This document shows positions 13,061 to 64,000 of a stretch of DNA of 64,000 nucleotides, piece after piece. The stretch lies in the NCBI GenBank assembly GCA_963712745.1, contig CAVQJC010000020.1:596467-660466 (forward strand). Direction: 5' to 3'. Position numbers and translations under genes: made by a program. The notes below the pieces were generated by a model. The model searched no databases, was not told the origin of the DNA, and saw only the letters and a list, made by a program, of their open reading frames with translations. Positions within the stretch are counted from its first letter, which is position 1; every line of letters starts with the position of its first letter. The stretch is from an uncultured Chloroflexia bacterium (GTDB taxonomy: Bacteria > Chloroflexota > Limnocylindria > Limnocylindrales > CSP1-4).

Positions 13061-13074
13061 TCAGGAGGACCAGC

Positions 13075-25042: not shown

Positions 25043-25064
25043 CCTTGCCGCTCCAACAGCGTCC

Positions 25065-27050: not shown

Positions 27051-27133
27051 GACCGGCCCACCCTACGGATTCGTGGTGCGTTCTGGCAATGGTACTGACG
27101 GTCTAGTGGCGTTTGTTGCGGTCGGCCGGAACA

Positions 27134-28509: not shown

Positions 28510-28561
28510 ACTCGTCTGATACGCGTGGTCGCTTGACGACGTACTTGGCCGAGACTAGGAT

Positions 28562-28582
28562 TGTACACACATCGTATGTACA
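28562..28582 (+). promoter_or_regulatory. Palindromic operator upstream of the DUF1778-GNAT TA operon
   Basis: TGTACA-N9-TGTACA immediately before the AGGAG RBS. Confidence 0.6.
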
Positions 28583-28593
28583 GGAGTGCAGCC

Positions 28594-28902
28594 GTGAGGG
28601 CCGATACGAGTGCAGCGTCCCGAGCCGGTAGACGTGCCAAGTCGGCCCGTGTGGACTTTCGCCTGAGTCCGGAGCAGAAGGTCCTGCTGGACGAGGCGGC
28701 GACGCTCTCGGGCACGTCACTCAGTGAGTTCGTGCTGCAGTCCGCGCAGGCCGCGGCCAACGACGTCCTCGCCGACCGCACACGGTTCATCCTGCCTCCC
28801 GAGCGATGGGCTGCGTTCGCCGATGCGCTTACGCGTCCGCCGCGCCACCTGCCCAGGCTCGCGGCCCTCCTGTCCTCGCCGTCGGTCATCGACGACGAGT
28901 GA
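28594..28902 (+). CDS. DUF1778 (RHH) antitoxin, TacA/AtaR-like
   Basis: RVDFRLSPEQKVLLDEAA ... SLSEFVLQSA ... AFADALTRPP. Confidence 0.9.
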   Translation: MRADTSAASRAGRRAKSARVDFRLSPEQKVLLDEAATLSGTSLSEFVLQSAQAAANDVLADRTRFILPPERWAAFADALTRPPRHLPRLAALLSSPSVIDDE

Positions 28903-29408
28903 GTTACGCGCCGGTCGAGCGAATCTCGAGTCGGCACCAAACCGCGGAGTTCGACTGCGGCTCCGGAGCCCAGAGCACCTGGCTTCGTCGATACGCACTC
29001 CAGGCCGACCGCATGGACTCCACCCGCGTCATGGTGATCACCCACAGGGATGACGCCCGCGTCGTCGGCTACTACGCCCTGTCGGCCGGTTCGGTCGAGC
29101 CCTCTGCGGCTCCCGATCGAATCGCCAAGAGCATGCCCCGATATCCGGTGCCGGTGATCATCCTGACCCGACTGGGCGTCGACCGCGCGGAGCAGGGCCG
29201 CGGACTCGGACGCGCGCTCCTCAGGGACGCGCTGATCCGCGCGGCGGCTGCGGCTGCAGAGATCGGCGTTCGGGCCATCCTGGTCCACTGCGAGAGCTCG
29301 GCCGCCCGCGACTTCTACATCCGGGTCGCCGAGTTCGAGCCTTCCCCGACCGACCCGCTGCACCTGTACCTCCTACTCAGCGACCTGCGGAAGTCGCTGG
29401 AGGATTGA
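28899..29408 (+). CDS. GNAT acetyltransferase toxin, TacT/AtaT-like
   Basis: FDCG, VVGYYALS, PVPVIILTRLGVD, QGRGLG, ILVH, FY; GTGA overlap with antitoxin. Confidence 0.92.
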   Translation: MSYAPVERISSRHQTAEFDCGSGAQSTWLRRYALQADRMDSTRVMVITHRDDARVVGYYALSAGSVEPSAAPDRIAKSMPRYPVPVIILTRLGVDRAEQGRGLGRALLRDALIRAAAAAAEIGVRAILVHCESSAARDFYIRVAEFEPSPTDPLHLYLLLSDLRKSLED

Positions 29409-29414
29409 CGCTGG

Positions 29415-31848
29415 TCACTCGTCCGCGTCGGCCGGGCCGTGGTCGACGATGACGATGCCGGGCAGTCCCGGCGGCAGCCGGTCAAGCGGGTGCGCCCGCC
29501 GATAGGTGTAGGTGCCGTAGTAGTGCGTGGTCGTGCCCATGGCCGAGTCGGTGAACGGGTCGCGCTCCCCGTACCCCGCGGTCACGGTGGCCGGCCCCCA
29601 GTGGGCGCCGATGCGCTTGAGGCGCATGTAGTCCTCCGCGGTCTCGTGGTCGCCGAGGTGGTCGGCCAGCTGGGCCGCGTAGGCCAGCCTGAGACCGTGC
29701 GTGGGCGTGGCGTCGGTCATCGCCCGCACCTCCGAGTACGCCGCAGCGTCGCCGCCCCAGGCCGCGATGACCCCCTCGTAGAACAGCGCATCGGCCTGCC
29801 CGGCCGCAAGCTCGAGCGCAAGCGCGGGATCACCGGCCATGAGCGTGATGGCCCAGGCTTCCTCGGGATCGGCCGCGATGGCCCCATCCACCACGGCGGT
29901 GAACCGCTCGTCCCCGAGGACTGCCCGCCAGGCCTCATCCGAGCCGAGGGTAGGCAGGAGCGCCAGGGCCGCGGCGTAGGCCGCGTTCGCCTCCTCGGGT
30001 AGCCCCGCGAGATCGTAGACCTGCCCGGCCGCGAAGGCCAGCGCCGCCTGCTGCTCGCCCAGCCGCAGGGCCTCGGCCAACTCGGCGCGGATCTCCTCGG
30101 TCGGTCGGCCGGTCTCCACGCCGGCTCGCGCAAGGCCCAGCCAGGCGTCGGGCAGATCGTCGAGCGCGATGACGTTGCGATACGCCTGCTCCGCCGCCTC
30201 CCACTCGCCGTTGGCCGCCAGCGCCGTGGCAGCAGCCAGCTGGTAGACACCGATCTCCGGGTCGGCGCGGGCAGCCTCGAGGGCGGGACCCAGCATGTCG
30301 GCCCACTCCCCTGCTGCACCTGCGCGCACGGCTTCCTGGTGGGTCAGCGCGGTGCCCTCGGAGCGGATGAGCTGAAGCATCGCCGCGGAGCAGGCCAGGA
30401 CGAGCAGGACCACGGCCGCGTTGCGCAGCCAGCAGGCGACACGCCAGGGCACGAACGGGAGGCCGATGCCGCGGGTGCTGGTGGCATCGAGCACGGCGAT
30501 GGGCAGGCCCATGAGCAGGGCCACGGTGGGGATGGTGTGGACGTCGACGACGACGTTGAGCGCGAGGTAGACCAGGCCGAAGACCGAGGCCCAGGCCCAC
30601 CGGCGCCGCTCGACATCGGCGCCTCGCAGCGCAGGTATGAGCAACCAGACCACAGCCCCGAAGGCGAGGACGCCGGCCAGCAGGCCCACCAGGCCAAGCT
30701 CGGACGCGGTCTGGAAGTACTGGCTGTGGGCGTGCGGCTGGTAGAGGTCGATCTCACCCGGCTCGGTGTAGGCCACGCGCCGGATCATCCAGGTGCCCGG
30801 ACCCAGGCCGGCGATGGGGGCGTCCTCGAACATGCGCAGGGCGGATGGTCCAGAACGTCAGCCGTCCCGCATCGCCCGAATCGAGGCGATCGAGCACAGT
30901 GGGGCCCAGGGCGACCGCGATGACGCCGGCCACGATGGCGACGGGGATGAGCGCGAGGCGGAACCGGCGGTCGGCCCAGGCCCGGCTGACGAGGTCCCGG
31001 CCGCGGCCCTCGATCAAGGCCAGCCCACCCACGATGACGATGGTCCCGGCCATCGCCAGCCAGCCCGAGCGGGCACCCGAGGCGAACGCGGCCGCGGCCA
31101 GCATCAGGATGAGCACGGCGGCGGTGATACGAGCCCCGCGCGTAGCCAGGCCCAGCCCGCCGATGGCCGCCACGGTCAGCAACGTGAGCACGGTGAAGAC
31201 GACGCTGGGGCTGCCCCAGGTCATGCCCAACAGGGCCGGACGCAAGGGTGGCATGCGCAGCTCGCCGACCAGGCCCCACCACTCGACCCACAGCTGCACG
31301 GTCCACAACAGGTAGGCAGCGCCCAGCACCACGGCCAGGGCGGCCATGACTCCGCCGATGCGAGCGCGTGCGTAGGGCAGCGCCATGATGCGCACCAGCA
31401 GCAGGTACAGCGCGATCAGCAGGATGGCGTAGGACAGGAAGTCCAGGCCGATGCGCGGGTACTGGCTGAACGTGATCGACAGGCCGAAGGCCACGAGCGG
31501 CGCGGCGAAGGCCGGCCAGATGGCCGTGGTCGGCCGCCAGCCCGGACGGCGCCAGGCCACGATGAGCCAGGCCACCAGTCCGATGCCCACGATGATGAGG
31601 TTCAGGAGCCGGACCGGCCCCGAGTACATGCCCAGCCAGCCGCCGCCGATGACGATGGCGTAGAACAACAGCAGCGTGAAGCCGAGCCAGCCGATGAACG
31701 CCAGCCGCGGGTTCGCAGGGCCCTCGGGCTCGGCGACGGTCGCGGGCCCGGCCGAGGGTTCGGTCAACGGCTCGGCCGGAGGTTCGGTCAAGGGCCCGGC
31801 CGGGGGTTCGGTCAAGGGCCCGTCTGATCGCTCGGCGGGCTCAGTCAA
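29415..31848 (-). CDS. O-antigen ligase (Wzy_C) family protein with C-terminal TPR region; frameshift near 30840
   Basis: Multi-TM, SGARSGW, GRLTFW | GLGPGTW, HAHSQYFQTASELGLVG; helical repeats after; N-terminal LTEPPA repeats. Confidence 0.85.
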
Positions 31849-50756: not shown

Positions 50757-52936
50757 TCAGCGAGGCGGCTCGTTCACCTCGAACCCGACGACAGCGAGTG
50801 CTTCGGCCGCGACGGAGCCTCCCCTGTCGTTGGCGTGCATGCCGTCGTCATCGATCCAGCCGTTCTCCCTCGGATCCTCATCGTGCCGCGGCCGTTGAAG
50901 GCGTCGAAGAACGACACGAAGACCGCCCCGTTGGCCTCGGCTGCCTCCTGGATCAGCTGCATCTCGATCTCCCAGTTGGCCGTGCACTCCGGCTCGATCC
51001 CCAACTCTCTCCAAGGAGCGATGAAGGGGTTGCAGATGTCATGCGCTCGGAGGACCACGGGCCGTCCTTCCCGCAGCTTCCAGATGTCGTCGTAGACCTG
51101 GTCGAGGACGTCCCGATATGGCTGCCAGTCCTCGACCGAGGGAACCACCGGCGGCTCCCATTCCAGCCCGGGGGTCCACCCAGGGCCCGAGTAGTCCGGG
51201 TCTCCTTCGAGCGCGTCGAAGCAGCTCAGGATCTTCGGTTGCGGCAGGTCGTACTCCAAGCATCCGGGGTGCGCGCGTAGCACGATGATCTATGCCTCCG
51301 CCAACACCTTGGCCCAGCTGCCCTGGACCATGTCCCGGATCCGGGTGATGGACGCGCCGCCGAGACGGCGGTCGTGGAGCCGGACCTCGCGGCCCAGCGC
51401 CTCGGCTGCCAAGTCAGCGTACCTCTCGGCCACTTCCGCACCACCCGAATCGGACATGTGCACGAGATCGATCGGCTCACCAGCGGGGAACGGCGCAGCA
51501 TCGGAGCCCGGCTGCACCTCGGCCGCGGTCGTCGGAGCCCGGCTGCACCTCGGCCGCGGTCGTCGGAGCGGGCGCCAGCGTCGGAGAGGGCGCCACCGTC
51601 GGAGCCTTGGGGGTAACGACGTACGTATGGACTTCCCGGCTGTCTGGGTCCTGGGCCACGACCCAGACGCCGCCGTCGGGTGCGAAGTCGAGGTCCGAGA
51701 TGCAACTCCCGGAGAGGAACGGCTGCCATGAGTCGCCGTCGAAGCGCGCCAGGCCATCGCATGCGCGTGTGGCGGCGACGGTGGCATTCACCCAGACGCT
51801 GCCGTCTGGCGCCACCCAGAGCGTGTCCATGGTGGTGCCCCACCATGCCGGCTGGCCGCCCCACGGTTCGACCCCGTCGGCTTCGGTGAAGACGGTCCAG
51901 CCCTCCTCGTCGAGGCGGGCCAGGCTCAGGTGCGGGGCGAGCGAGTCGCCGGCCGTCCACAACACACCACCCGGCGAGACGCCGGCCGAGAAGGAGCCCC
52001 CCACCCCTGTGAAGGCGCCGTCGAAGCCCTCGGGTCCGGGGACGACCCCCCAGTCCGTGCCGTCGAAGCGCAGGAACGAGATGCGCCCGCCCTCGGCTGG
52101 CTCGGTCATGAGCCAGGCCACGCCGTCGTCCGTCACCGAGAGCAACGAGGGCCCATCGTGGACATACACACCTGCCCAGACGTCACCCCAGGAGCTGCTC
52201 CCGGCCGAGGTCTCGCCGACCCAGGAGAGATCATCGTCCAAGAGCCAGACCGTGCCATCGGCCTGCACGTAGAACTGCCCGGTGCTCGGCTCGCCAACGC
52301 GAGGGTCGGGCACCCACGCACCATCGTCGAAGAGCCGCACGTAGGAGGGCGCGTCGGGCGACTGGCTGGCCGCTTCGCGGGCCCAGAGCCGCCCATCGAG
52401 GCTGGCGAAGCTCCCACCCCACCCGAGGTACACGAATTCCTGGTCGTAGTCCCACTCCCCAGCCTGCCCGAGTCGGAAGAGACGCCGCCAGGAGTCGTGG
52501 TACGCCAGACGTGGCCGCTGTCCCCCACGATGACACGCTCGCAGTCCCAGGGATAGCCGTCTGATTGATGCAGCAGGTCCCGGTGTCCGTCCTCGACCAC
52601 CTCCACGACGCCCGGCTGTACCTCCTCGGTGACCAGGGTGGAGAGGAACTCCTCGGTCGTCATCGGTGAGGGTGACGCCGTCACCGCGGCTGGGAGGGCC
52701 TCGTCGTCATGCGGCGTGGTGAGGATGCCGGCGAGCAGGAAGCCGCCGAACAGCGCCACGATGACGGCTGCGGGGATGAACCTGACTGCGGAGGACATCG
52801 TGAACCCCCATCTCTGCGATCGGCTCGCGGTGATGACGGCGTCGAAGATGGCGAGATCATCGACCGGGCGCACGTGACCCATCAGGTCTTCGAACTCGCC
52901 CGACAGTTGGCGCTCGAAGGCGGTCATCTCATCCAT
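50757..52936 (-). CDS. Large membrane-anchored anti-sigma-like protein with beta-propeller and SGNH-like domains (multiple frameshifts)
   Basis: Starts overlapping the ECF stop; short cytoplasmic N-terminus, TM (AAVIVALFGGFLLAGIL), repeated 'APDGSVWV / RFDG..W' propeller units, then SDS ... DDGMHAN. Confidence 0.6.
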
Positions 52937-53477
52937 CGCTGAGGTCCTCACGGAGTCGGTCGACCAGGCGCTTGAGGCGCTGGCGGATGGCCGCCGGACT
53001 CCTGCCGGTGGCGGTCGCGAGTTCGTTGGAGTTGAAGCCTGCGCCGTAGCGCATCGTGAGCAACGCTCGGTCATCCGGGTCCAGACGCCGTAAGGCAGCC
53101 CTGAGATCGACGGAGCCGATGCCTGTCGCGGGGTCGATGCCACCCGCGTTGCCCGAGGCATCGGTCGGCAGCTCGAACTCCGATCGTCGCCGCCGTTTGC
53201 GGAGAAGATGCTTGGCCTCGTTGACCGCGACGGACACGAGCCAGGGGCGGAGGTGGTCAGGGCTATCGACCCGGTCGAGCTTCTTCCAGGCGACGAGCCA
53301 GGCTGCCTGGACGGCTTCGTCTGCGATCGAGTGATCGCCGCTGAAGGCGAGGCAGGCCCGTCGCATGTCCTCGTGATGGGCGGCGATGATGCGGCGGAAG
53401 GCGACCTCGTCGCCGACAGCCGCTGACGCGATCACGTCGAACTGCTGCCGGTCTGCCAGCCTTGACACCGCCCCCAT
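52929..53477 (-). CDS. ECF RNA polymerase sigma factor
   Basis: GDEVAF, ADEAVQAAW, LRPWLVSVAVNEA region 2; region 4 HTH. Confidence 0.92.
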   Translation of the reverse strand: MGAVSRLADRQQFDVIASAAVGDEVAFRRIIAAHHEDMRRACLAFSGDHSIADEAVQAAWLVAWKKLDRVDSPDHLRPWLVSVAVNEAKHLLRKRRRRSEFELPTDASGNAGGIDPATGIGSVDLRAALRRLDPDDRALLTMRYGAGFNSNELATATGRSPAAIRQRLKRLVDRLREDLSDG

Positions 53478-53836: not shown

Positions 53837-54364
53837 CTACACACTCGCCGGTCCGGACAGAGACGGAACTGGCGGGTCGCCGGGGAAGATGAACCCCGTG
53901 ACCTCCCAGGGACCGGACCCGGTCACTCGGTAGTAATAGGACAGCCCGGCGTAGTCACCCGTACCGTTGAGCCAGAAGGTGATGACATCACCCTGGGTCG
54001 GGTCGCTGACGACGCCAGTGTAGGTGCCCTCCCAGGTGCCCCCGTCGTTCGAGATGGTGCCAGCTCCCCACTGCACACCCCCGGCGGGCCAGAGGTCCGC
54101 GTCCCAGGAGTAGTCCACCGCGCCGCTGACACGCGGATCGTCGGTCTCATGCGTGCATGTCGCCCGTCCGCCTCGGTAGTGCATCACTCCGCCGGCCCCG
54201 GTGTCGGTCGTGCCCGTGTCGATCGAGCAGTGCTCGATGCCCGTCACGAAGACCGGGGCGCCATCGTGCGCCGGCGTGGGTGAGGCCTCCTGTGCCAGTG
54301 CCGGCAACGCCCAGCTCGCGAGGCATAACACGATGGCCGCGTCGGCGACCCATAGACTGCGCAT
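53837..54364 (-). CDS. Secreted protein homologous to the outer domain of the adjacent anti-sigma-like proteins
   Basis: GAGGGGG RBS, signal peptide ...PALA, ETDDPRVSG ... NDGGTWEG ... GTGDYAGLSY ... G(x)PP motifs. Confidence 0.8.
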   Translation of the reverse strand: MRSLWVADAAIVLCLASWALPALAQEASPTPAHDGAPVFVTGIEHCSIDTGTTDTGAGGVMHYRGGRATCTHETDDPRVSGAVDYSWDADLWPAGGVQWGAGTISNDGGTWEGTYTGVVSDPTQGDVITFWLNGTGDYAGLSYYYRVTGSGPWEVTGFIFPGDPPVPSLSGPASV

Positions 54365-54441: not shown

Positions 54442-55239
54442 CTACTGGCTCGGCACCGTCGGCATCTCCCAGGCCGCTGGCGGCGGGCCCTGGTAGAGCA
54501 CGCCCACGAAGTCCCCGTTCCCGTCGGGAGGGCTCGCCGCCCCGGCGGCGACGTAGGTCCAGCCCTCGTAGGCTCCGTCGCCGGTGACAACCACCAGCGG
54601 ATACGCCGTGTAGGCGCTGCTGCGATCGAAGACCACGAAGTGGCGACCCGTCCAGGTGCCCTCGGGCCCCTGGAGTACCTCGTCGTACGTTTCGAGGTCG
54701 TTATCGCCTCCGGTGGCATTGACGATCTCCCGTTGCGTGATGGTGGCCGTGCCTGTCAGACGTGGGTCGCTGGCAGTGATGATGCACGTCGCCGTTTGGA
54801 TGCCGTCGGGAAAGTCCCAGGAACACTCCTGGGACGCGGTCACCCGGACCGCGTCGGTTTGCGCAACGATCGGCGCTCCGGGCACGCTACCTCCCTGCTG
54901 GTCGAAGGGCTCAGCGACGAGGAACAGGCCACCGAGGGCGAAGACGAGGGCTCCGGCGGTGATGGCCTTGACGGGACTCAACATGGTGACGGTCCTCCTG
55001 GTGACGATCGGGAAACGATCAATCGACGGTCCGTGGGTAAGTGGCTGAGACTCTGCGTCCCGGGAGGCCGGGCCGCTCCTGCGCTCGAGGGTCGGCAGGG
55101 GCCACCAGCGACTTCGCTGGCGCGTCTGCGGGAGGCGTGACATCACCTCAGAGACAGTCCGCGAAGCGGTATGGGGTGAGCCAGCCGTGGCTTCGAGCCA
55201 CGATCGCACGAGCGAGGTCATCTGTTCGTCGGTCGTCAT
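54442..55239 (-). CDS. Putative membrane anti-sigma factor
   Basis: ATGA-coupled to ECF; RSRWWPLP, TM MLSPVKAITAGALVFALGG, outer domain with SDPRLTG. Confidence 0.75.
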   Translation of the reverse strand: MTTDEQMTSLVRSWLEATAGSPHTASRTVSEVMSRLPQTRQRSRWWPLPTLERRSGPASRDAESQPLTHGPSIDRFPIVTRRTVTMLSPVKAITAGALVFALGGLFLVAEPFDQQGGSVPGAPIVAQTDAVRVTASQECSWDFPDGIQTATCIITASDPRLTGTATITQREIVNATGGDNDLETYDEVLQGPEGTWTGRHFVVFDRSSAYTAYPLVVVTGDGAYEGWTYVAAGAASPPDGNGDFVGVLYQGPPPAAWEMPTVPSQ

Positions 55240-55796
55240 CGCACGACCTCCTGGATGGACGGTGCAGCGGGCAGGCGCTCATCGGCCTCGATGGCGGCCC
55301 GGAGGCCACGCATCGCTCTGCTCAGCCGTGACTTGACGGTCCCGACCGGGATGTCGAGGATGTCGGCGACTTCCTCGACGGGCAGGTCCATGAGGTGATG
55401 CAGGACCACCACCGCTCGCTGTTCGATGGGGAGTCGGTGGAAGGCTCGTTCGAGTTCGTCGCGCACGACGACTCTACCGAGAGCGTCCCCTGCGACCGGC
55501 TCATCCCGTTCGTCGAGATCGGTCTCGGGGAGCCAGCGAGGTCGGCGCTTCGCCTCCGCGTAGCACCTCCGCAGCAGCAGCCGGTACGACCAGCCATCGA
55601 AGCGGCGCGGATCGCGTAGCCGACGCAGGTCCCGCCAGATCGCGAGCAGCGCCTGTTGGACGGCATCCTCGGCCACATCTGGGTCGCGAAGGATACCGAC
55701 GGCCACCCGCTGCAAGCGGGGATGCGCCCGAAGGGCCAGCGCCTCGAAGGCGCTACCGTCACCGTTCTGTGCCCGCACCACGAGTCGCGGGTCCAT
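55236..55796 (-). CDS. ECF RNA polymerase sigma factor
   Basis: MDPRLVVRAQNGD, AEDAVQQAL, FDGWSYRLL, IPVGTVKSRLSRA. Confidence 0.95.
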   Translation of the reverse strand: MDPRLVVRAQNGDGSAFEALALRAHPRLQRVAVGILRDPDVAEDAVQQALLAIWRDLRRLRDPRRFDGWSYRLLLRRCYAEAKRRPRWLPETDLDERDEPVAGDALGRVVVRDELERAFHRLPIEQRAVVVLHHLMDLPVEEVADILDIPVGTVKSRLSRAMRGLRAAIEADERLPAAPSIQEVVR

Positions 55797-56085
55797 GCCC
55801 CCACATCCTCGGACCATCGGTCCTGGACCATCCATGGGACCGCCTTGATGGGGTCCCTACCTGGAACGGGTCGCCCCTGCGCCGGTCAGGTTCCATCTCG
55901 ACCTGCTCCAATGCTGCACCCAACGAGCGCGAAGTCAAGAACCGGTATTGCCATCGACCGTTCCACCCCAACGCCGCGACTCCGAGCGCGTAGCCAAGTC
56001 CGGCTGCAGCGTGCTGTTTTGCAGAGCCCGCTCGTTTAGGCAGTCGCACGAAGCCTGGTTGTCCTGCCAAGCACGGACGTGAGAG

Positions 56086-56200
56086 GCGGGTCAGAGACGG
56101 GAATCGAACCCGCGACATTCCGCTTGGGAAGTCCTTGCTGTGAGCGTAGTGGCACGAGCGTGGAGGGGCGAGCGAAAGTCGACAGTCGGGATGTCGCTGC
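56086..56200 (-). repeat. att-like site A: degenerate tRNA-Gly(CCC) 3' half plus conserved arm
   Basis: 56094-56131 matches 36/38 nt of the consensus tRNA half, CCA end lost; arm GTGAGCGTAGTGGCACGAGCGTGGAGGGGCGAGCG follows on the + strand. Confidence 0.85.
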
Positions 56201-56616
56201 ACCGCTCGGGCAAGCAGGTGGTCGATCGCGCCTCGGCCAACGAGGAGCTGCGCGAGGGCAACGCCACCTTTGTCACGAAGTCCTCGCACACGGTCGGCTC
56301 CCACCCGTGCCGCGTCGCCGACGAGACCGGAACGTGTGATGACTTCTAAGCCCCACACCGAGGCCCAGAGGTCAAGGTCGGCAGTGCCGAGTTCGTCGAA
56401 CTCATCACCCAGGCTCCCGAGATCGCAGACGCGGCCGCGCTCGGTGAGCGCGTCGTGACCGAAAGGGGGAAGGTGTCCTCGTCGCGCCCCATCGATCATC
56501 AGCTCGCCAGTAGCAGCGGTGGCGCCACCTCCGCGGGTCCGGGAACTTCGTGGACAGGGACGCGAACGACGTAGCCACGTGGTCGAGGCGGATTGCCGGA
56601 GACGGTGCGGGCCCGG

Positions 56617-57021
56617 TCAGGACTGTGCGGGTGCCGCGACAGCGCCGGCGGCGCGGGTGGCCTGGAGGAGGCGAAGGCCGAGCACCGTCGCGACGAGGGC
56701 GATCCCCTCGAAGGTCACGGCCAAGATACCTGACCACTCCAGCCACACCTCACCGGACTGACCTGGCAGACCGATGGTCCGGCTGATGACGTACATCCCG
56801 ATCGAGCCCAGCGCGACGAGAGCGCCCAGACTCCACGCGAGTCGCGAGCCAAGGAGGATCCCGACTGCAGCAGCGAGGGCGACCGCGAAGTTCAGCAGGA
56901 AGGAGAGTCCAAGGTACGTCGCGTCGCCGAAGGTGTCCGGGGCGTCCACCAAGTGGACCGTGCCGGACACCACCAATGCGAGTGCGGCGACGATGCTGAG
57001 GCGTTGAATGGTCGATGACAT
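56617..57021 (-). CDS. Small 4-TM membrane protein
   Basis: AGGAG RBS; GTVHL, YLGLSF, YVISRTIGLP motifs, four hydrophobic segments. Confidence 0.75.
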   Translation of the reverse strand: MSSTIQRLSIVAALALVVSGTVHLVDAPDTFGDATYLGLSFLLNFAVALAAAVGILLGSRLAWSLGALVALGSIGMYVISRTIGLPGQSGEVWLEWSGILAVTFEGIALVATVLGLRLLQATRAAGAVAAPAQS

Positions 57022-57360
57022 GGATCGAGGCTCCTTGAGGCCGCGCTGGTGGCCGAGGCGGCTGAATGCCGCAGTTCCAGGACCACCGGGTTCCCGGAGT
57101 CTCGGTAACCCATGTGAAGAACCCATGAATTGACCGTCCAGCAAGCCGTTCCCGTCGGTCGCCGGTCAGTCGGTCCACTCGGCGATGAGCATGACCCCGG
57201 CGCAGAACTGGTAGTCGGTGATGGCAGGCTCGTTGGTCTCTGCGGCGAACGGCGTCCGGTGCGGCGTAACTGGCGCACCGGGGGAGGCTCTACCGACAAC
57301 AAGCCGGCTGCCACCAGGAGTTGCGGGACGAGCACACGCCACGAGCGTGAGTCGAGGGAA

Positions 57361-57470
57361 TGGAACGGGAGACGGGACTCGACCCCGCGACATCCTGCTT
57401 GGGAAGTGGAGAGGCCTGAACGGCGTGCAACGAGCGTGGGAGGGCGAGCGAAACGGCCACAGGTATGGTG
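57361..57470 (-). repeat. att-like site B: tRNA-Gly(CCC) 3' half plus degenerate arm
   Basis: 57361-57406 matches 43/46 nt of the consensus; arm ... ACGAGCGTGGGAGGGCGAGCG. Confidence 0.88.
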
Positions 57471-57509
57471 TAGTGACGAGTGCGACTCCCAGGTCTTCTC
57501 TGCAGGCAT

Positions 57510-57692
57510 CCGAAGCGATGCACCCGCTGGGTCGAATTCGGCGATCCCGACGACGTCGCAGGCCTGGCCGCGTTCCTGCTCACAGCTGATGCCGAATGGA
57601 TCACCGGACAGGTCATCGCCGTCGACGGTGGGCTTTCGGGTATCAAGCTGCCACCCGCCGCTGGCCACTACATGCGGAGCATGTCGCGCTGA
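57510..57692 (+). pseudogene. C-terminal fragment of an SDR oxidoreductase
   Basis: HPLGR | GDPDDVAGLAAFLLTADAEWITGQVIAVDGG; truncated at att site B. Confidence 0.7.
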
Positions 57693-57734
57693 GCGCGAGA
57701 GGATGAGGGATGCCGCGTCGCGCGGCCCGGCGGC

Positions 57735-58241
57735 TCACGCCCCCCGCAGCGCGGCCAGGATGTCGTCCCATTCCCGGTCCTGCGGATCGCCGGCGCCGCG
57801 GGCGAGGATGGTGCCGTCGCGGGTCACGACCAGCGCGTGGACCTCCTCGCCACCCTGGATCGCAAGGGACCGCTGGAAGCCGCGCACGTCCGTGTAGATC
57901 GTGATGGTGCGGGCGAGGACGTCCGGGTCGCCGATGCCGGCTGTCATGCCGCCATCGATGAAGCGCCGGACGGGTCGCCACCCGGTGGCGAGGACGGGAA
58001 GCTCCACGACGGCTGCGGGCAGCGCGCCGGTGAGACCCCGCGGTGTCGGCGGCACGCCATCCGCCACGGCGCGGGCGATCCAGCGGTCGACCCGGGCCTG
58101 GTGCCATTGCCGGAACGCCACGACGGCCAGCGTCCGTTCGGCGGGGAATCCGTGCGGCAGCGCCAGCTCCACGCCCAGGAGTGAGCGGGCGCTGACGGTC
58201 GGGAACCGGGCAGGGGACCCGCCTGTCTGGCTGGTCACCAT
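57735..58241 (-). CDS. Conserved hypothetical protein, ATP10-like thioredoxin fold
   Basis: FPTVSARSL, VVAFRQWHQARVDRW, FIDGGMTAGI, TITIYTD. Confidence 0.65.
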   Translation of the reverse strand: MVTSQTGGSPARFPTVSARSLLGVELALPHGFPAERTLAVVAFRQWHQARVDRWIARAVADGVPPTPRGLTGALPAAVVELPVLATGWRPVRRFIDGGMTAGIGDPDVLARTITIYTDVRGFQRSLAIQGGEEVHALVVTRDGTILARGAGDPQDREWDDILAALRGA

Positions 58242-58263
58242 GCGGCTACCGGTCGGGCGCACG

Positions 58264-58566
58264 TCAGGCACGTGCTCCGGGGTGGGGCAGTGCGATGGGC
58301 CGGCCCTGGCCGAAGAACTGCCCCGCAGCAGCCTCGATGGACGGGTCGACAGCCATGAGGGCGAGCGCGTCCACTGCAGCATCGAGCGGCGTCGCGAAGG
58401 GCACGTGAGGCAGCACGACCTGCATGAACCGCCGCCTGACGCCGTTGGCGCTGGCGGCCGCGGTCGCAGGCACGAACCTCGGACACGCGGTGGCCGGCGG
58501 CGGCGAGCTTCTCCGCGGTGGCCCGTCCCAAGCCGCGCCGCCCCCGGTGATCAGGATGGTCGTCAT
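58264..58566 (-). pseudogene. Internally deleted SDR oxidoreductase remnant
   Basis: MTTILITGG.GLGRATAEKLAAAGHRV N-terminus joined to a C-terminal 'GQFF' region; catalytic core missing. Confidence 0.55.
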
Positions 58567-59012
58567 CGCACGACCATCGTAGTCCGCGGACGGCCAGGGC
58601 TGACGGCGCGCCCCGAGGCGACCCAGCCCGAGCACCACCCCGACCGCCAGCGATGCGATCGGCGCGCCGTGGATGAGCCTGGCCTGACCAGGCTCGCTCG
58701 GGACACCGTCGACGGCGAGTCGCTGACGCTCAAGGACGACGGCGGGCGCCCGATCCTCGTCCTCGCCGCGGCGCGCACGCGGCGTCTAGTGGGAACCCCG
58801 TGGCGGGCGGTCTCGCTCAACGAAGCGCCGGCACGGCTCGCGGAGGCCCAGGGACCCGGTGCTACACTCCAGCTCGAGGCGCGGACCGGACCGTGACCTC
58901 ACCATCAGTCCGTCTCGGCGTCCCAGCGCTCCTCGCTGCGGCGAAGGCCCGCCGCCGACCGTTCCTGAGCAGGAACACCAGAACGGAACCGCGTTTCTCG
59001 GAGGGCACGTTC

Positions 59013-59870
59013 ATGACCAACCCTGCCGCGACTGCGACTGCGATCAGCGCGAAGGCCCCTTCGGGCATCGCGCCTGAGCGAGCCCGCTCGCTGGGCCGCT
59101 GGAACCGCTTCCTGGTCTTCGCCCACGGGGGCCAGTTCGTCCTCATGCTCCTGATCTCCGGGACCGCCGTGCTCTTCGAGGTCGTCGTGCCGACGGCCCG
59201 CCCGATCATCGAGAACGGCGAGTTCACCGGGATCGAGCCGTCGAGCGTGATGCTCGTCTCGTTCCCGCTGGTCTACCTGATCGCCAGCTTCTTCCTGATG
59301 AGCGCCATCGCCCACGCATCCGCCGGCATCTTCCTGCGCAGCCGCTACGAGGCCTGGCTCGCCCGGGGCATGAACCCGCTTCGGTGGGTGGAGTACGCGT
59401 TCTCGTCGACGGTGATGATCGTCGCCATCGCGTACCTCAGCTTCATCACCGAGTTTCCGGCGCTCGTCGCGATCGCCGGCTGCAACGTCGCGATGATCCT
59501 CTTCGGATGGAGCATGGAGGCGGGCAACGAGGGCCGGCTGACAAAGGGCGAGCGCATCGACTGGAAGCACTTCGTCTTCGGCTGCATCGCCGGGGCGGTC
59601 CCCTGGATCGCGATCTTCTCGATCGTGTGGGCCTACTCGGCCCAGGAGGGCCTGCCGCCAGAAGCCCAGATCCCGGGCTTCGTGTACGTGATCATCGCCA
59701 GCCTGTTCGTCGCCTTCAACATCTTCGCCATCACCATGGTCCTCCAGTACGGGAAGGTTGGCCGCTGGAAGGACTACCTGGTAGGCGAGAAGACGTACAT
59801 GGTGCTGAGCCTGGTCGCGAAGTCGCTGCTGGCCTGGCAGGTCTGGTCCGGCACGCTCCGCCCGCAGTAA
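59013..59870 (+). CDS. heR: Heliorhodopsin
   Basis: 7 TM; N..H..Q in TM1 (NRFLVFAHGGQ), SAIAH, NPLRWVEYAFSS, ILFGWSME, YMVLSLVAKSLLAWQ with the retinal-binding Lys; GGAGG RBS. Confidence 0.96.
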   Translation: MTNPAATATAISAKAPSGIAPERARSLGRWNRFLVFAHGGQFVLMLLISGTAVLFEVVVPTARPIIENGEFTGIEPSSVMLVSFPLVYLIASFFLMSAIAHASAGIFLRSRYEAWLARGMNPLRWVEYAFSSTVMIVAIAYLSFITEFPALVAIAGCNVAMILFGWSMEAGNEGRLTKGERIDWKHFVFGCIAGAVPWIAIFSIVWAYSAQEGLPPEAQIPGFVYVIIASLFVAFNIFAITMVLQYGKVGRWKDYLVGEKTYMVLSLVAKSLLAWQVWSGTLRPQ

Positions 59871-59918
59871 ACCGGGCGGCCGCCCGAGCGCACGTCAGCG
59901 GCGAGGCGAGCCTGCCGT

Positions 59919-60090
59919 TCAGCCTCCCCCCCGGTGTGATCGCGCCGATCGCCATGAACCCGAACACCAGCTCGTCCTGCACGAAGTGGATGAACCACGC
60001 GCACGTGAGGCCACGCGTCTCCAGCATGGACCGGGCCAGGATCCAGCTAAGGAACCAGGCCAGCAGGACGCCGATGATGTCGTAGAAGCG
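59919..60090 (-). pseudogene. C-terminal fragment of a CPBP/CAAX (Abi) intramembrane protease
   Basis: GVLLAWFLSWILARSMLETRGLTCAWFIHFVQD; no N-terminal EExxxR part. Confidence 0.55.
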
Positions 60091-60264
60091 GACGATCCCG
60101 AAGCACGCCACCACCATCCGCAGCGCCTGGCGCGAGCCACGGGCTGCACCCCTTCCCATTCTCGAGGTCCGTCTGCCCGAGGTCTACGGTGAATCGAACG
60201 CGGCGATGTGGGACGGGGTCGCGGCGACCAAGCAGGGCGTCGTCCCGAGTTCAGAAGGGGGAAG

Positions 60265-60386
60265 TGGAGCGGGAGACGGGACTCGAACCCGCGACATTCT
60301 GCTTGGGAAGTGTTGGCCTCGTGAGCGCAGTGGCATGAGCGTGGAAGGGCGAGCGAATCCCGATCAGTTAGGGTGTCTTCGCAAGG
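60265..60386 (-). repeat. att-like site C: intact tRNA-Gly(CCC) 3' half plus conserved arm
   Basis: Minus strand CTTCCCAAGCAGAATGTCGCGGGTTCGAGTCCCGTCTCCCGCTCCA (60310-60265); the 5' tRNA half is replaced by the arm ending CAGTTAGGGTGTCTTCGCA (+). Confidence 0.93.
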
Positions 60387-60598
60387 TCCCGCGAAACCCT
60401 GCTTGGGAAGTCTCGGTCGAGTCGACAATGACCCTCACTCGCCTTCCGACGCATGCCGCCACCAGCCCCCTCTGGACTAGACGCCGTCCCTGTAGCCCTG
60501 CAGTCGCAGCCCCTATCCGGCAGACACAGAAGCGGGTCCATCAGCCCGAAGGCCGAGGGACCCTTGCGTCTCGAAGGACGACCCCTTACAGCTCAGGC

Positions 60599-61432
60599 CT
60601 ATTCGGCGGGCGGTGCCTCTGGGAACGGGGGCATCTCGCGGGGGAAGACCGCGCCGGTGACCGCGAACGGCTCATCGTCCGTTCGCTGGAATACAACGAA
60701 TGCCGTCAGGCCGTCATAGCCACCCTCGCCGGTCAAGACGGCGGTCTGGACCGTCAACCCGCCGTCCGTTTGGTGGGAGAGCCCGGTGCCCTGTCCGCTC
60801 CACGTACCCCCGTCGTTCTCGATACGCCATGCATTGGTCACGGGCAACACGCCCTCCGTGTCACTCACGACGTGCCAGTCGAGGTTCGTCACCCACGACA
60901 ACGTGCCGGACACCCGCGGGTCGCTCGTCTCGATGGTGTCGGCCAAGCCCATCTCGTCTCGGATGAGGAAGACATCATCTTCCTCATCCAACGAGCCTTG
61001 GACCGCCGGTCCGGAGGTGACCTCACCGGTGAAGTAGGCCGCGGCGGGTTCGGCGTCGACCTCTGCACCCGGCACGTTGCCTCGCTGGTCGAACGGCTGG
61101 GCGATGAGGAAGGCACCGCCGATAGCGAAGACGATGGCACCGGCGGTGATGGCCTTGACTGGACTGAGCATGGACTGGGTCCTCCCTGTGACGGTGGGGG
61201 TATGGCCGTTGGCGGCCGGGATGGACGTGGGCTGGTAGTCCGTCGTCTGGTCGATAGCGGGCGATGGGGCAGTCTTGCTTCGCCACGTGGGCAACCACCA
61301 GCGGCGACGGACCTGGCCCGTCTGACGGACCTGCGCCATGGCCTGCTGGACGCTGGCGTGCGGGTTGGGATGCGGAGTGGCCTGGTCTCTCAGCCTCTGC
61401 CCTGCGGCTCGTCCGAGGCGGTCGTCAGTCAA
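60599..61432 (-). CDS. Putative membrane anti-sigma factor
   Basis: Coupled to ECF; RRRWWLP, TM MLSPVKAITAGAIVFAIGG, outer domain with SDPRVSG. Confidence 0.78.
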   Translation of the reverse strand: MTDDRLGRAAGQRLRDQATPHPNPHASVQQAMAQVRQTGQVRRRWWLPTWRSKTAPSPAIDQTTDYQPTSIPAANGHTPTVTGRTQSMLSPVKAITAGAIVFAIGGAFLIAQPFDQRGNVPGAEVDAEPAAAYFTGEVTSGPAVQGSLDEEDDVFLIRDEMGLADTIETSDPRVSGTLSWVTNLDWHVVSDTEGVLPVTNAWRIENDGGTWSGQGTGLSHQTDGGLTVQTAVLTGEGGYDGLTAFVVFQRTDDEPFAVTGAVFPREMPPFPEAPPAE

Positions 61433-61989
61433 CTGAGTACCTCCTCCTTCGGGACCCGCACCACGGCACGTGCGTCGGCATCGAGAGCAGCGCGCAGCGC
61501 CTTGAGTGCCCTGCTCTGGCGTGAGGCCACGGTGCTGACGGAGACATCGAGTGCCTCCCCGACCTGCTCCAGCGGTAGGTCGAGCATGTAGCGAAGGACG
61601 ATGACGGCCCTGTGGTCGACCGAGAGTCGAGCCAGGGCCCTGTCCATCTGGTCAGCATGGACGACACCGAGGAAGTCATCGGTGGCTACAGGTTCGCTGT
61701 CCGGTGCTATCGCCGCCTCAGGCAGCCAGTCTGGTCGACGCTTGGCCTCGTCGTAGCAGGCTCTGATGAGCAGTCTGTACGACCAGCCGTCGAACTTGTG
61801 TGGGTCTCGAAGTCGCGGCAGATAGCGCCAGATACCGATGAGCGCCTGCTGTGTGGCGTCATCGGCGACCGACGCATCCCCCAGCACACCGAGGGCGGCG
61901 TTGTACAGGCGAGGATGGATGGCTCCAGCGAGCGTCTCGAACGCTTGCTGGTCGCCCTGCTGTGCTCTGACCACGAGGTTTGGGTCCAT
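61429..61989 (-). CDS. ECF RNA polymerase sigma factor
   Basis: MDPNLVVRAQQGD, ADDATQQAL, FDGWSYRLL, VSVSTVASRQSRA. Confidence 0.95.
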   Translation of the reverse strand: MDPNLVVRAQQGDQQAFETLAGAIHPRLYNAALGVLGDASVADDATQQALIGIWRYLPRLRDPHKFDGWSYRLLIRACYDEAKRRPDWLPEAAIAPDSEPVATDDFLGVVHADQMDRALARLSVDHRAVIVLRYMLDLPLEQVGEALDVSVSTVASRQSRALKALRAALDADARAVVRVPKEEVLS

Positions 61990-62212
61990 GCCCCTCACGC
62001 TTGCTTCGTCAGCCATCCACCGACGGAGAGACCGGGTCCGAGTGGTCCTCTCTGTACTAAGTCATCGGCAGGACGCGATTATTTCCCACATTCGTCGCGA
62101 GACGGCTTGCATCGCACCCATCGGTCAGCCCGTCAGGACCCACAGCTGCCACATCGCGCTCACAACGCTGCGCACAGGCAGACGGTTAGTTGGATCAGGG
62201 ACGAGGGGAGAG

Positions 62213-62334
62213 TGGAGCGGGAGACGGGACTCGAACCCGCGACATTCTGCTTGGGAAGTGTCGCGCTCGTGAGCGTAGTGGCACGAGCGTGGAGGGGCGA
62301 GCGGAAGCGGCTCAGTTAGGGTGTCTTCGCAGGG
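62213..62334 (-). repeat. att-like site D: intact tRNA-Gly(CCC) 3' half plus conserved arm
   Basis: 62213-62258 is identical to the 46-nt half of site C; arm GTGAGCGTAGTGGCACGAGCGTGGAGGGGCGAGCG ... CAGTTAGGGTGTCTTCGCA. Confidence 0.93.
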
Positions 62335-62372
62335 TCAGTCTTGCCGCTCCGCGACCTCCCACCGACACGACA

Positions 62373-62402
62373 GGAGACCCGCCCCTTGCGGGACGGGCCT
62401 CC
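62373..62402 (-). terminator. Conserved GNRA-capped hairpin after anti-sigma-like gene
   Basis: Minus strand GGAGGCCCGTCCC-GCAA-GGGGCGGGTCTCC. Confidence 0.65.
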
Positions 62403-62414
62403 GGTGCAGATGGG

Positions 62415-63193
62415 TCAGTCAGCCGTCGGGGCCGCTAGCGGTCCGTAGGGCGGGAGTTCGCCCTCGTAGAGCACCCCGGTCCAGTCGAAGTCACCGTCGG
62501 ACTCCGGGTCGATGCTCGACGCGACGAACTGCCAGCCCTCGTAGGCACCAGCGCCGCTGAGGACGAGGAAGTTCTGCGTAGGTTCAGGTTCTTCACCCCA
62601 CATGATATACACGTGACCGGTCCAGCTGCCCTCTGGTCCCTCGTGCGTCGATGGCCACCATTCGAACGCATCGTCGCCTACGGCTGGGGTGATTCCCCCG
62701 CCATAGCCATAGTGGATAGTCGACGCGCCCGTCAGGCGCGGGTCGCTGGCGGTCCAGGTACAGACGGGAAAATCACAGGTCTGGGTCACGGTCACCTCGA
62801 CGCCGGGCAGGAACGCGGACTGGGCCCCCGGGACACTGTCCCCCTGCTGGCCGAATGGCTGGGCGATGAGGAAGGTGCCGCCGATGGCGAAGACGAGGGC
62901 ACCTACGGTGATGGCCTTGACTGGGCTGAACATGGTTTGGGTCCTCCCGATGACGGTAGGGGCATGGCCGTTGGTGGCCGGGATGGGGCTGGGCTGGTAG
63001 TCGGTCATGCCGGTGGCCGTGAGTTCGTGGGCCTTCCGGTCGAACAGCGGGAACGGGCCACCAGCGACCTGCTGGCGGGTCTGCGGCACGCTGCGCCATG
63101 ACCCGGGCGACACCGGCTTGAACGTCCCTCGGAACGACTCTCGCGGTCCCGGTACCACGTATCGAGGAGGGACTGCATCTGCTCGTCGTTCAT
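62415..63193 (-). CDS. Putative membrane anti-sigma factor (frameshifted N-terminus)
   Basis: MNDEQMQSLL ... RWWP, TM MFSPVKAITVGALVFAIGG, outer domain with SDPRLTG. Confidence 0.72.
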
Positions 63194-63755
63194 CGCAGGG
63201 CCTCCTGCCGGTCGCGTGGTCGGGGATCACCGTGCGGGCATCCGCCTCTAGCGCAGCACGCATCGCCTTCGTGGCCGCCCGCAAGCGGGAGTAGACCGTC
63301 GAGCGCGGGATAGCCCAGCGTGTCCGCTATCTCCTCCGGGGTCATGCCCAGCAGGTGGCGCAGGGCGAGGACCACACGATGGTCCATCGACAGACGCCGG
63401 AAGCCCCGCTCCAACTGGTCGCGATCAGCGACGCCACCGTAGGCATCGGCTGCCCGTGGTTCGTCAGCGGGCGAGAGGTCGTCGCTGGACGTCCACTCCG
63501 GCTGTCGCTTGGCTTCGGCATAGCAGACCCGCGACGAGCAGCCGGTACGACCAGCCTCGTACTTGGCCGGGTCCGCAGACGTCGGATGTCACGCCAGATG
63601 TCGAGGAGCGCCTGTTGGGTCGACGTCCTCGGCCGAAGGGTGGTCGCCCATCACGCCGTAGGCCACTCGGAACAACCGGGGTAGTCGGCGGTCGCCAGCG
63701 CCTCGAAGGCACGCTGGTCGCCATCCTGAACCCGAACCACGAGGTCTTGGTCCAT
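63190..63755 (-). CDS. ECF RNA polymerase sigma factor (several frameshifts)
   Basis: MDQDLVVRVQDGDQRAFEALA, GWSYRLLV, ERGFRRLSMDHRVVLALRH ... EEIADTLG, spread over different frames. Confidence 0.8.
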
Positions 63756-63959
63756 GCCCCCACATCCCTTTGGCCGACGATCGTCTCTGGCCACCGGAGG
63801 GGACCGAGTCACATCCGGTCCTCTATAGGGTACGGGGCCTACCACATGCAGGATTGCGAGATTCGGTCCTCGCTGCGGACGACCACGAGCGTTGTGGCAC
63901 GCCAGTTCGACGCACCACGGATGCAGGCAGAGTGTCACCACAAGCGTGAAATGAGGGTT

Positions 63960-64000
63960 TGGAGCGGGAGACGGGACTCGAACCCGCGACATTCTGCTTG
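63960..64000 (-). tRNA. 3' end of tRNA-Gly (site E): either the intact tRNA-Gly(CCC) gene or another att-like copy; cut by window edge
   Basis: 41 nt identical to sites C/D, including the T-arm GGTTCGAGTCC and the CCA end; 5' half not visible. Confidence 0.6.

Follow-up and report, generated by a model that had tools for sequence, protein, structure and literature searches.

The DNA analyzed here is a 64,000-nt window (the whole stretch, positions 596,467 to 660,466 of contig CAVQJC010000020.1, GenBank assembly GCA_963712745.1) of a soil-type Chloroflexota genome, an uncultured Chloroflexia bacterium, with a G+C content of about 68%, and its subject is a set of repeated operons in which an extracytoplasmic function (ECF) sigma factor is paired with a single-pass membrane protein. 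Three paralogous ECF sigma reading frames, with N-termini MDPRLVVRAQNGD, MDPNLVVRAQQGD and MDQDLVVRVQDGD, lie on the minus strand, as do all of the cassettes (numbered 1 to 3; Table 1). In tblastn comparisons between the cassettes, the first sigma factor matches cassette 2 with an E-value of 7e-59 (57% identity between the two sigma factors), and the first partner protein matches cassettes 3 and 2 with E-values of 1e-41 and 1e-24, respectively; across this range (1e-24 to 7e-59), the repetition is therefore not due to chance. The alignment of the partner proteins contains every motif that an initial annotation of this DNA had listed, namely RWW.P, the segment M(L/F)SPVKAIT..GA.VFA.GG.FL.A.PF, and SDPR(L/V)(T/S)G, G.W.G and G.G.Y.G in the outer domain. 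The same annotation had counted three translationally coupled pairs. The three are indeed paralogs, and the open reading frame (ORF) coordinates of cassettes 1 and 2 show a 4-nt overlap between the sigma stop and the partner start, but the genes of cassette 3 are broken; moreover, the count was incomplete, as it overlooked a fourth, more distant pair (53477-51477) and a paralog of the outer domain alone (54364-53837), just downstream.

The first, second and fourth sigma factors contain the Pfam domains Sigma70_r2 and r4 or r4_2 and nothing else, the composition of ECF (group 4) sigma-70 factors. The cassette sigma factors score above the cutoff of the NCBIfam ECF superfamily model TIGR02937 (70 bits for cassette 1, with a cutoff of 42.9), and the best subfamily model, TIGR02983, gave 120.6 and 103.3 bits, under its cutoff of 141.55, with no subfamily cutoff reached. 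The sigma profile also matches ECF sigma factors of solved structure, including SigW, SigE, SigH and CnrH. In cassette 1, the probable start codon is that of MDPRLVV at 55796, which yields a protein of 186 amino acids, the length of its relatives. Further, a scan of genomes with peptide patterns from the partner's transmembrane (TM) segment returned 39 related loci, all in Chloroflexota metagenome-assembled genomes (MAGs), the best of them 70% identical. In 37 of these loci (all but L014 and L037), the distance from the end of a sigma match to the anti-sigma relative downstream is about 215 nt at most, and 33 of the 74 ORFs with an anti-sigma or barrel match start 4 nt before the sigma stop. 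Many of the loci hold two to five cassettes, and four overlapping loci on one contig together contain 11 sigma and 10 partner matches within about 52 kb, according to our own mapping. ECF cassettes at L021:7179-8522, L001:15615-16607 and L009:12779-13780 have partners with Kelch beta-propeller outer domains; related arrays therefore mix sensor types.

The partner proteins have the architecture of membrane-anchored anti-sigma factors. Each gene lies directly downstream of its sigma gene and encodes one TM helix and a cytoplasmic N-terminus, with Arg/Lys before the TM helix and Asp/Glu after it, as read from the alignment. The AlphaFold2 model of the cassette 1 partner, built on 74 homologs, contains helices at residues 4-18 and 25-35 (the head), a low-confidence linker, a TM helix at residues 89-107, and an eight-stranded barrel at residues 131-250, whose predicted local distance difference test values (pLDDT) are 89-98 over the block. 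When the cassette 1 sigma factor (alignment of 25) was modeled together with partner residues 1-60, the median score of three runs was 0.84, compared with 0.14 for the best control; at least 96% of the contacts agreed between runs, and the pLDDT of the partner was at least 72. Scores of this level were obtained for 116 of 157 solved complexes and for 2 of 215 mismatched pairs, counts that apply only roughly here because our own alignments were used. In the model, helix 1 contacts sigma4 (residues 130-135 and 162-169) and helix 2 contacts sigma2 (residues 18-51), which supports, without demonstrating it, that the head holds the sigma factor between these two domains. Neither the anti-sigma proteins nor the barrel-only paralog matches a Pfam or NCBIfam family. 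The head of the anti-sigma proteins differs from the class I anti-sigma domain (four helices in about 100 amino acids, zf-HC2/RskA-like), as there was no profile match to that class and the two helices occupy 35 residues. Passages of one study (PMC7406223) place the first helix of CnrY, a class II factor with two helices, on sigma4 and its second on sigma2, as in the model here, and state that heads shorter than 50 amino acids were set aside as possible class II domains.

Alternatively, the single-pass proteins could be co-transcribed, membrane-anchored binding proteins that are targets of the sigma factor rather than its regulators, an option made attractive by their short head (under 50 amino acids), by the lack of any Pfam or NCBIfam anti-sigma domain within them, and by the occurrence of the barrel on its own (in a secreted or lipoprotein form) and in tandem pairs. 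The complex model, with its contacts on both sigma2 and sigma4 and its wide separation from the best control, speaks against it, as do the conserved gene order and 4-nt overlap and the correlation of 0.84 between sigma and head identities across pairs, and we regard it as very unlikely. The identification of ECF sigma/membrane anti-sigma pairs in the initial annotation is upheld by the r2 and r4 domains, the overlap, the gene order in the related loci and the modeled complex.

The three partner proteins of the window are most alike in the juxtamembrane and TM-coding block, which is Pro/Gly-rich and opens with an invariant Met-x-Ser-Pro. The window copies of this block are 78-79% identical, with nonsynonymous divergence (dN) of 0.10-0.15 and synonymous divergence (dS) of 0.47-0.86, and their longest exact runs are 16-20 nt; the barrel or outer domains are 23-41% identical, with dN/dS of 0.66-0.85 between window paralogs, at saturation, and the N-terminal heads are 29-44% identical. 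The block appears to be held by purifying selection, because its dS of 0.47-0.86 stands alongside so low a dN. Recent gene conversion was considered as the origin of this constancy and is disfavored by the same dS values. The proposal of a constant membrane region with a variable outer domain is accurate insofar as divergence is non-uniform along the proteins, but the cytoplasmic head varies as much as the outer domain, and variation is therefore not confined to the latter. The block may be a segment that the release machinery recognizes as a common substrate or docking site, for instance in intramembrane proteolysis.

Foldseek places the barrel next to the Diels-Alderases Cyc15, AbyU and AbmU, DUF3224, PodA and allene oxide cyclase, with target TM-scores of 0.40-0.63 and sequence identities of 12-20%; the Pfam family DUF3224 itself is not matched by the barrel. 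Barrels of the AbyU, DUF3224 and allene oxide cyclase type enclose small molecules, and because of this a ligand-sensing role is proposed for the extracytoplasmic barrel. The whole partner protein has 333 relatives at E ≤ 1e-3, of which none is named and none has a Pfam domain in the barrel, and a profile of the barrel alone finds 2,674 representatives of 50% clusters at E ≤ 1e-3 (1,664 at 1e-10). The 146 newly listed barrel proteins include short forms with signal-like N-termini, tandem barrels and forms with other N-terminal heads. When 26 barrel relatives were compared with Pfam, 25 had no family, and P0200 had only thioredoxin/DsbA families, outside the barrel. A search of the ESM Atlas returned only Chloroflexota clusters, with scores of 0.81-0.85, which is below the level at which a match is more than a lead.

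The modules of these operons have separate histories. Across 30 sigma/partner pairs (28 unique) from the window and the Chloroflexota MAG loci, mean identity decreases from the TM block (0.70) through the sigma factor (0.56), the linker (0.48) and the head (0.37) to the barrel (0.29). The head follows the sigma factor closely (r = 0.84 with sigma identity), and the barrel and TM block do so weakly (r = 0.34 and 0.24, respectively). In particular, some pairs have sigma factors that are 88-90% identical with barrels that are only 22-25% identical, while the converse applies to cassette 1 and locus L001, where the barrel is 85% and the TM block 82% identical, compared with 55% for the sigma factor and 30% for the head. 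Maximum-likelihood trees of the sigma factor and the barrel conflict at nodes with 100% support, and approximately unbiased (AU) tests reject each module's tree on the data of the other (log-likelihood differences of 579, p = 4e-7, and 1526, p = 2e-53). Locus L001 is syntenic with the window, sharing sulfatase and MttB-like genes at 74-81% nucleotide identity; between the two, dS is low in the barrel (0.22) and the TM block (0.28), compared with the flanking MttB ortholog (0.62), the sigma factor (1.19) and the head and linker (0.96-1.78). The nucleotide match between cassette 1 and L001 begins at window position 55005, at about residue 79. A second such case involves cassette 3, whose sigma factor and head are 81% identical to L021:18639-19553 in a match that ends at 63037, right after the head; the C-terminal part of L021:18639-19553 resembles the partner of the fourth sigma factor instead.

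The conflict between sigma factor and barrel might also arise from very fast diversifying evolution of the barrel, with no recombination at all. The barrel is indeed the least conserved part of the pair, and its dN/dS between window paralogs is high, if saturated; but the comparison of cassette 1 with L001 runs in the opposite direction, with the barrel far more similar than the sigma factor and a barrel dS below that of both the flanking ortholog and the sigma factor, and the dN/dS of these orthologous barrels is 0.32. We consider this explanation highly improbable. Because rate differences cannot generate both directions of discordance, recombination within the partner gene is the best reading of these comparisons: sensor barrels would have been re-paired with sigma/head modules during evolution, with sigma factor and head behaving as one co-varying module. 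The observed exchange runs through the linker/TM-coding segment inside the anti-sigma gene, and not through the transfer RNA (tRNA) half sites that are described below.

Cassette 3 is legible as a pair only across several frames. Its linker, TM segment and barrel share one open frame within ORF 62415-63284, with MFSPVKAIT starting at 62933, and its head (MNDEQMQSLL...) lies in other frames than the TM segment and outer part. The ortholog in locus L002 has an intact sigma factor and head (88.5% nucleotide identity), and relative to it cassette 3 carries 13 single-base indels between window positions 63682 and 63057 (about 630 nt), few of them in homopolymer runs; two more indels in the barrel are breaks of L002 and not of the window. 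All 13 fall within the sigma and head part, which is about 52% of the unit, and none within the approximately 640 nt of the TM segment and barrel, a distribution that would have a chance of 0.52^13, or about 2e-4 by our own arithmetic, if indels fell evenly. Because the indels are confined in this way, cassette 3 is read as a decayed pair that retains an open membrane-anchored barrel.

Were the frame breaks long-read consensus errors in a repeated region, cassette 3 would be a working third pair. Single-base breaks do occur in other related MAG loci (two in the barrel of L002, and split ORFs in L013, L017, L023, L034 and L036), and the fourth anti-sigma gene of the window likewise changes frame; on the other hand, ORFs of 586-792 amino acids are open elsewhere in the window while 13 indels crowd into some 630 nt here, few of them lie in homopolymers, and none falls in the TM segment and barrel. 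We judge this rather unlikely and retain the decayed pair. The relatives P0005, P0087, P0101, P0111, P0128 and P0134 begin exactly at the invariant Met of MxSPVKAIT, as does what is still open in cassette 3, and may be membrane-anchored barrels without a head or the result of gene calling after upstream frame breaks. L021:14610-17039 (809 amino acids) and P0108 (401 amino acids) are single ORFs in which a sigma r2 domain is followed by partner-like sequence, and they may be sigma/anti-sigma fusions or frame errors.

The cassettes are interspersed with parts of a tRNA gene. On the minus strand, tRNA-Gly(CCC) is represented by five 3′ parts that extend from the anticodon loop to CCA, at about 56080, 57355, 60259, 62207 and 63952, a 29-nt remnant of another half is at 60388-60416, beside the copy near 60259, and a conserved arm of about 65 nt precedes each of the four halves for which that side is inside the window. 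The copy at the window end may belong to a complete tRNA-Gly(CCC) gene, and mismatches to this copy rise with distance from it (0, 0, 3 and 8). ARAGORN and Rfam (at gathering thresholds) found no tRNA or RNA family in the window; the halves are therefore not callable tRNAs or known RNAs. A tRNA-like fold of arm plus half was considered and dropped, as inspection of the arm showed nothing complementary to the 3′ strand of the acceptor. A half lies about 195 to 285 nt upstream of each of the three sigma/anti-sigma pairs, depending on the start codon, and the statement that each pair lies just downstream of such a site is true for each of them; there are, however, five sites and a remnant, and two of the sites precede genes other than ECF genes. 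The near-palindrome CACGCTYGTG occurs four times in the window, with 0.76 expected, always inside the tRNA-half elements (56153-56162, 57340-57349, 62282-62291 and 63939-63948, minus strand), either in the arm or just after the CCA end. In related loci, the motif TGAGCGTGAA follows several tRNAs; in the window it shows no enrichment (7 one-mismatch matches, with 3.5 expected).

The direct repeat thus consists of a tRNA 3′ part that begins at the anticodon loop, a canonical sublocation, as in an attachment (att) site. Williams in 2002 is said to have distinguished classes of sublocation for insertion into tRNA genes, the anticodon loop among them. In L021, a complete tRNA-Gly(CCC) heads an array of halves and arms that decay with distance. 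Moreover, five related loci contain a complete tRNA (Gln, Ser, Leu, His or Gly) with a displaced copy of its 3′ part a few kb away and ECF cassettes in between, and in those five loci, with five different tRNAs, the blocks of identity begin at the anticodon loop. A complete tRNA lies 85-132 nt upstream of a sigma start in L006, L009, L021 and L039. Passages of PMC9897764 describe tRNA fragments at tRNA-gene insertions. The pattern of arrays and displaced 3′ copies is a signature of site-specific insertion at tRNA genes. Among the relatives, the link to tRNA sites that the initial annotation had proposed to count applies to a minority, since 6 of the 39 related loci have a complete or partial tRNA in the 600 nt ahead of a sigma start.

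In-place tandem duplication of a unit of tRNA half, sigma gene and anti-sigma gene, followed by divergence and with nothing inserted, would give paralogous cassettes in the same orientation and an arm plus half that recurs as a unit, both of which are observed, and it would account for the lack of a recombinase gene in the window, L021, L001 and four other intervals, as well as for the intervals that begin with an ECF sigma gene (5 of 5 in L021 and 3 of 5 in the window). Yet heliorhodopsin and other unrelated genes occupy two of the window intervals, cassette 3 has its closest relative (86% nucleotide identity) in L002, where the genomic surroundings are different, and the cassette 1 barrel is closest to that of L001 and not to those of its window neighbors. 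Further, the non-functional halves near 60259 and 62207 have no mismatches in 41 nt, although the cassettes they bound encode proteins that are only 30-57% identical; these halves therefore postdate the paralogs, a point against in-place duplication. This alternative is improbable in our estimation, and insertion is preferred.

Overall, the locus probably contains ECF/anti-sigma operons of an expanded Chloroflexota family whose barrel has been re-paired, located at a tRNA-Gly(CCC) insertion hot spot. Each operon would encode an ECF sigma factor and a 4-nt-overlapping, single-pass membrane protein with its N-terminus in and its C-terminus out, whose two-helix head would hold the sigma factor between sigma2 and sigma4. 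Binding of a small ligand by the extracytoplasmic eight-stranded barrel is predicted to trigger sigma release, probably by proteolysis through the conserved Pro/Gly-rich juxtamembrane/TM segment, a putative step. Sigma factor and head would be inherited as one module, while recombination in the linker/TM segment would re-pair the sensors. The intervals of 1.0-2.8 kb, each ending in the arm of about 65 nt and the tRNA 3′ part, were most likely added successively, with site-specific recombination presumably supplied in trans; two of them would have delivered ECF cassettes (2 and 3) and two other cargo, with cassette 1 beyond the oldest site. Cassette 3 would later have lost its sigma factor and head while keeping an open membrane-anchored barrel.

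Several observations weigh against this reading. The window ends inside the terminal tRNA copy, tRNA-Gly halves are present in only 2 of the 39 related loci, and the L002 ortholog of cassette 3 has neither the arm nor the tRNA-Gly half, the similarity between L002 and the window at cassette 3 ending at a promoter-like block and a terminator hairpin. A search for tyrosine and serine recombinases yielded none among the 38 ORFs examined in the window upstream of 51.3 kb or the scanned ORFs of the array, nor was a recombinase found in L021, in L001 or in four other tRNA-bounded intervals; the only transposase genes there are of the IS21, IS110 and IS256 types, in L008 and L013. The Foldseek E-values of the barrel are marginal, from 1.2e-3 (best) to 3e-2, with none at or below 1e-3, the partner profile has no match at E ≤ 1 among the sequences of the PDB, with Pfam likewise yielding no relative, and the membrane motif MxSPxK is present in only 22 of the 146 listed barrel-profile proteins by a crude pattern count. 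Alignments of the barrel at 20-30% identity make its tree noisy, and the family-wide constancy of the TM block (alignment A4, 39 loci) is partly built in by construction, because the locus scan used TM peptides and the homolog search needs shared words. Related MAG loci hold frame breaks, and some of the cassette 3 indels may be assembly errors. Finally, sigma binding, the barrel ligand and the release step are predictions only.

A more far-reaching proposal is that ECF operons and other one- or two-gene units, such as heliorhodopsin, circulate in these Chloroflexota as recombinase-less mini-cassettes that a trans-acting recombinase stacks at tRNA anticodon-loop sites, with the linker/TM block as a built-in recombination joint that lets any barrel re-pair with any sigma/head module; it would amount to an integron-like store of signaling modules if true, though we think it unlikely. 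The swappable library of sensors that the initial annotation had envisaged is retained in part: evolutionary re-pairing is evident, and the family is expanded and often clustered, but tRNA-half sites are not the route of that exchange, and swapping as an active cassette-level process is not supported, as no recombinase was found in the window or in six examined related intervals. The array intervals also carry unrelated cargo.

A conserved block upstream of the sigma genes (at about 55800-55900, 62000-62110 and 63760-63870, minus strand, and also in L002-L030) contains -35-like and -10-like elements and, downstream of them, a GGACC...GGTCC hairpin that lies some 60-75 nt ahead of the start codon. 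Its similarity among many paralogs prompts the question whether promoters are cross-recognized. An ad hoc promoter pattern (-35-like GGAA[ACT] or GTAA[ACT], a spacer of 15-22 nt, and -10-like [CT]NTA[CG][CG]) matched 13 of 38 upstream regions, compared with 1.2 in shuffles, and none of the three window cassettes; because it was written after inspection of the data, it is recorded here only as a note.

The fourth pair and the remaining genes complete the locus. In the partner of the fourth sigma factor, the reading frame switches near 52433, and the outer part is rich in repeats and does not resemble the barrel; matching relatives of this pair are found at L021:14602-15479 and L001:14365-15003. 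The break between its two ORFs (52133-53161 and 51477-52433, minus strand) is a frameshift or an assembly error. A perfect 31-nt tandem duplication at 51501-51562 lies at the 3′ end of ORF 51477-52433; because 31 is not divisible by three, it puts the C-terminus of this ORF in a different frame. The heliorhodopsin interval is bounded by the tRNA-Gly half elements at 57355-57478 and 60259-60383, and L002 contains a heliorhodopsin-like stretch (L002:6229-6772, 69% nucleotide identity) about 2.6 kb from its ortholog of cassette 3. Elsewhere in the window are Tad/Flp pilus-type genes, TadE/TadG-like (81-3840, minus strand), a gene for a SOS-response-associated peptidase (SRAP) followed by a small ORF and a HipA-like kinase (12205-14551, plus strand; HipA_C E-value 3e-39), with the look of a toxin-antitoxin system, and a long polysaccharide-synthesis cluster (14845-31300). 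Apparently split genes include Bac_transf across 25039-27050 and three adjacent GT87 ORFs at 6631-9566.

Table 1. Features of the ECF cassettes, the tRNA-Gly(CCC) half array and its cargo, in window coordinates.
Feature	Position	Strand	Remarks
Cassette 1 ECF sigma factor	55236..55835	-	ORF of 199 aa; Pfam Sigma70_r2 and r4_2
Cassette 1 anti-sigma factor	54442..55239	-	265 aa; head, TM helix and barrel
Cassette 2 ECF sigma factor	61429..62016	-	probable start 61992; Pfam r2 and r4
Cassette 2 anti-sigma factor	60599..61432	-	277 aa; alignable with cassette 1 anti-sigma factor
Cassette 3 ECF sigma remnant	63195..63755	-	repeated frame changes; legible only across three frames
Cassette 3 anti-sigma factor	62415..63193	-	head from 63193 to ~63057 frame-shifted; linker, TM segment and barrel open
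Juxtamembrane/TM-coding block	54897..55057; copies 61084-61244, 62846-63006	-	repeat family D1; 68-87% nucleotide identity, gapless
Fourth, more distant ECF sigma factor and membrane partner	51477..53477	-	sigma factor 52929-53477; partner starts at ~52933
Secreted barrel-only paralog	53837..54364	-	from alignment; tblastn E 5e-9; signal-peptide-like N-terminus read by eye
Arm and half c56	56080..56201	-	8 mismatches in 41 nt to the window-end copy; upstream of cassette 1
Arm and half c57	57355..57478	-	3 mismatches; upstream of the non-ECF gene 56617-57144
Arm and half c60	60259..60416	-	0 mismatches; upstream of the heliorhodopsin interval
Arm and half c62	62207..62331	-	0 mismatches; between cassettes 3 and 2
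tRNA-Gly(CCC) 3′ part cut by the window end	63952..64000	-	41 nt identical to the 3′ part of the complete tRNA-Gly(CCC) of L021
Non-ECF cargo of two array intervals	56617..59870		three genes
Membrane protein	56617-57144	-	no Pfam/NCBIfam family
Protein without Pfam/NCBIfam family	57735-58382	-	
Heliorhodopsin	58800-59870	+	Pfam PF18761, E 8e-75

ECF sigma/anti-sigma pairs are a major route of bacterial signal transduction, and the origin of their new input specificities is mostly inferred. The operons described here offer a concrete and testable case, in which a single gene combines two histories, one for each side of the membrane segment, within a family of many paralogs; sensor re-wiring is therefore a question that closed genomes and domain swaps can answer. 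A further result is an extracytoplasmic barrel domain that lacks annotation and whose relatives number 2,674 when clustered at 50%. If a recombinase were tied to the tRNA-half array, this array would broaden tandem accretion to include operon-sized units. Expansions of ECF paralogs, modular anti-sigma factors and tandem accretion at tRNA or tmRNA genes are already known, while the barrel domain, the short class-II-like head, the mosaic within a gene and the operon-sized, recombinase-less intervals are new; no description of this sigma/anti-sigma-barrel family was found among the titles and abstracts listed by searches of open-access text.

Compared with the RsiW/SigW and RseA/RpoE type of system, the operons share a sigma factor with sigma2 and sigma4 only, an overlapping downstream gene for a membrane protein with its N-terminus in, a head predicted to lie between sigma2 and sigma4, and a promoter-like block upstream of the sigma gene; they differ in that the head is not of class I, the outer domain belongs to no described family, and the juxtamembrane/TM block is the best conserved part of the three window copies. 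The structure of the CnrY/CnrH complex of Cupriavidus metallidurans is known, and CnrY works with the periplasmic protein CnrX. As predicted by the model, the head described here would resemble CnrY in being short and in having two helices, the first on sigma4 and the second on sigma2, but no sequence similarity between them was detected, and the sensor barrel is fused to the anti-sigma factor here, whereas CnrY uses CnrX. As modeled, the barrel would have the eight antiparallel strands and the approximately 130 residues of the AbyU/Cyc15/AbmU, DUF3224, allene oxide cyclase and PodA barrels; here it is an extracytoplasmic domain of a signaling protein, or a secreted or lipoprotein-like protein, and not a cytoplasmic enzyme.

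Like integron cassette arrays, the array consists of short, promoter-proximal or self-promoted cassettes that have no recombinase of their own and a recurring site of recombination type. Unlike integrons, it has no IntI-like gene and no imperfect palindrome of the attC type, the site is a tRNA 3′ part plus arm, and the cassettes have their own promoter-like block and terminator; of the components that define an integron (intI, attI and attC), no integrase was found, and the repeats are tRNA halves with their arm. A parallel is provided by the ssrA islands of Dehalococcoides, for which passages of PMC3146451 describe tandem accretion, including islands without integration genes. As far as those passages go, both systems are arrays in a Chloroflexota host, downstream of a small RNA gene, with direct repeats of its 3′ part, extra conserved bases beside the repeat and some intervals without a recombinase. 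They differ in that the repeat here has about 46 nt and starts from the anticodon loop, compared with 20 nt in the passages on Dehalococcoides, and in that the intervals here span only 1.0-2.8 kb, none with a recombinase in the window or L021, with 8 of the 10 intervals of these two arrays beginning with an ECF operon.

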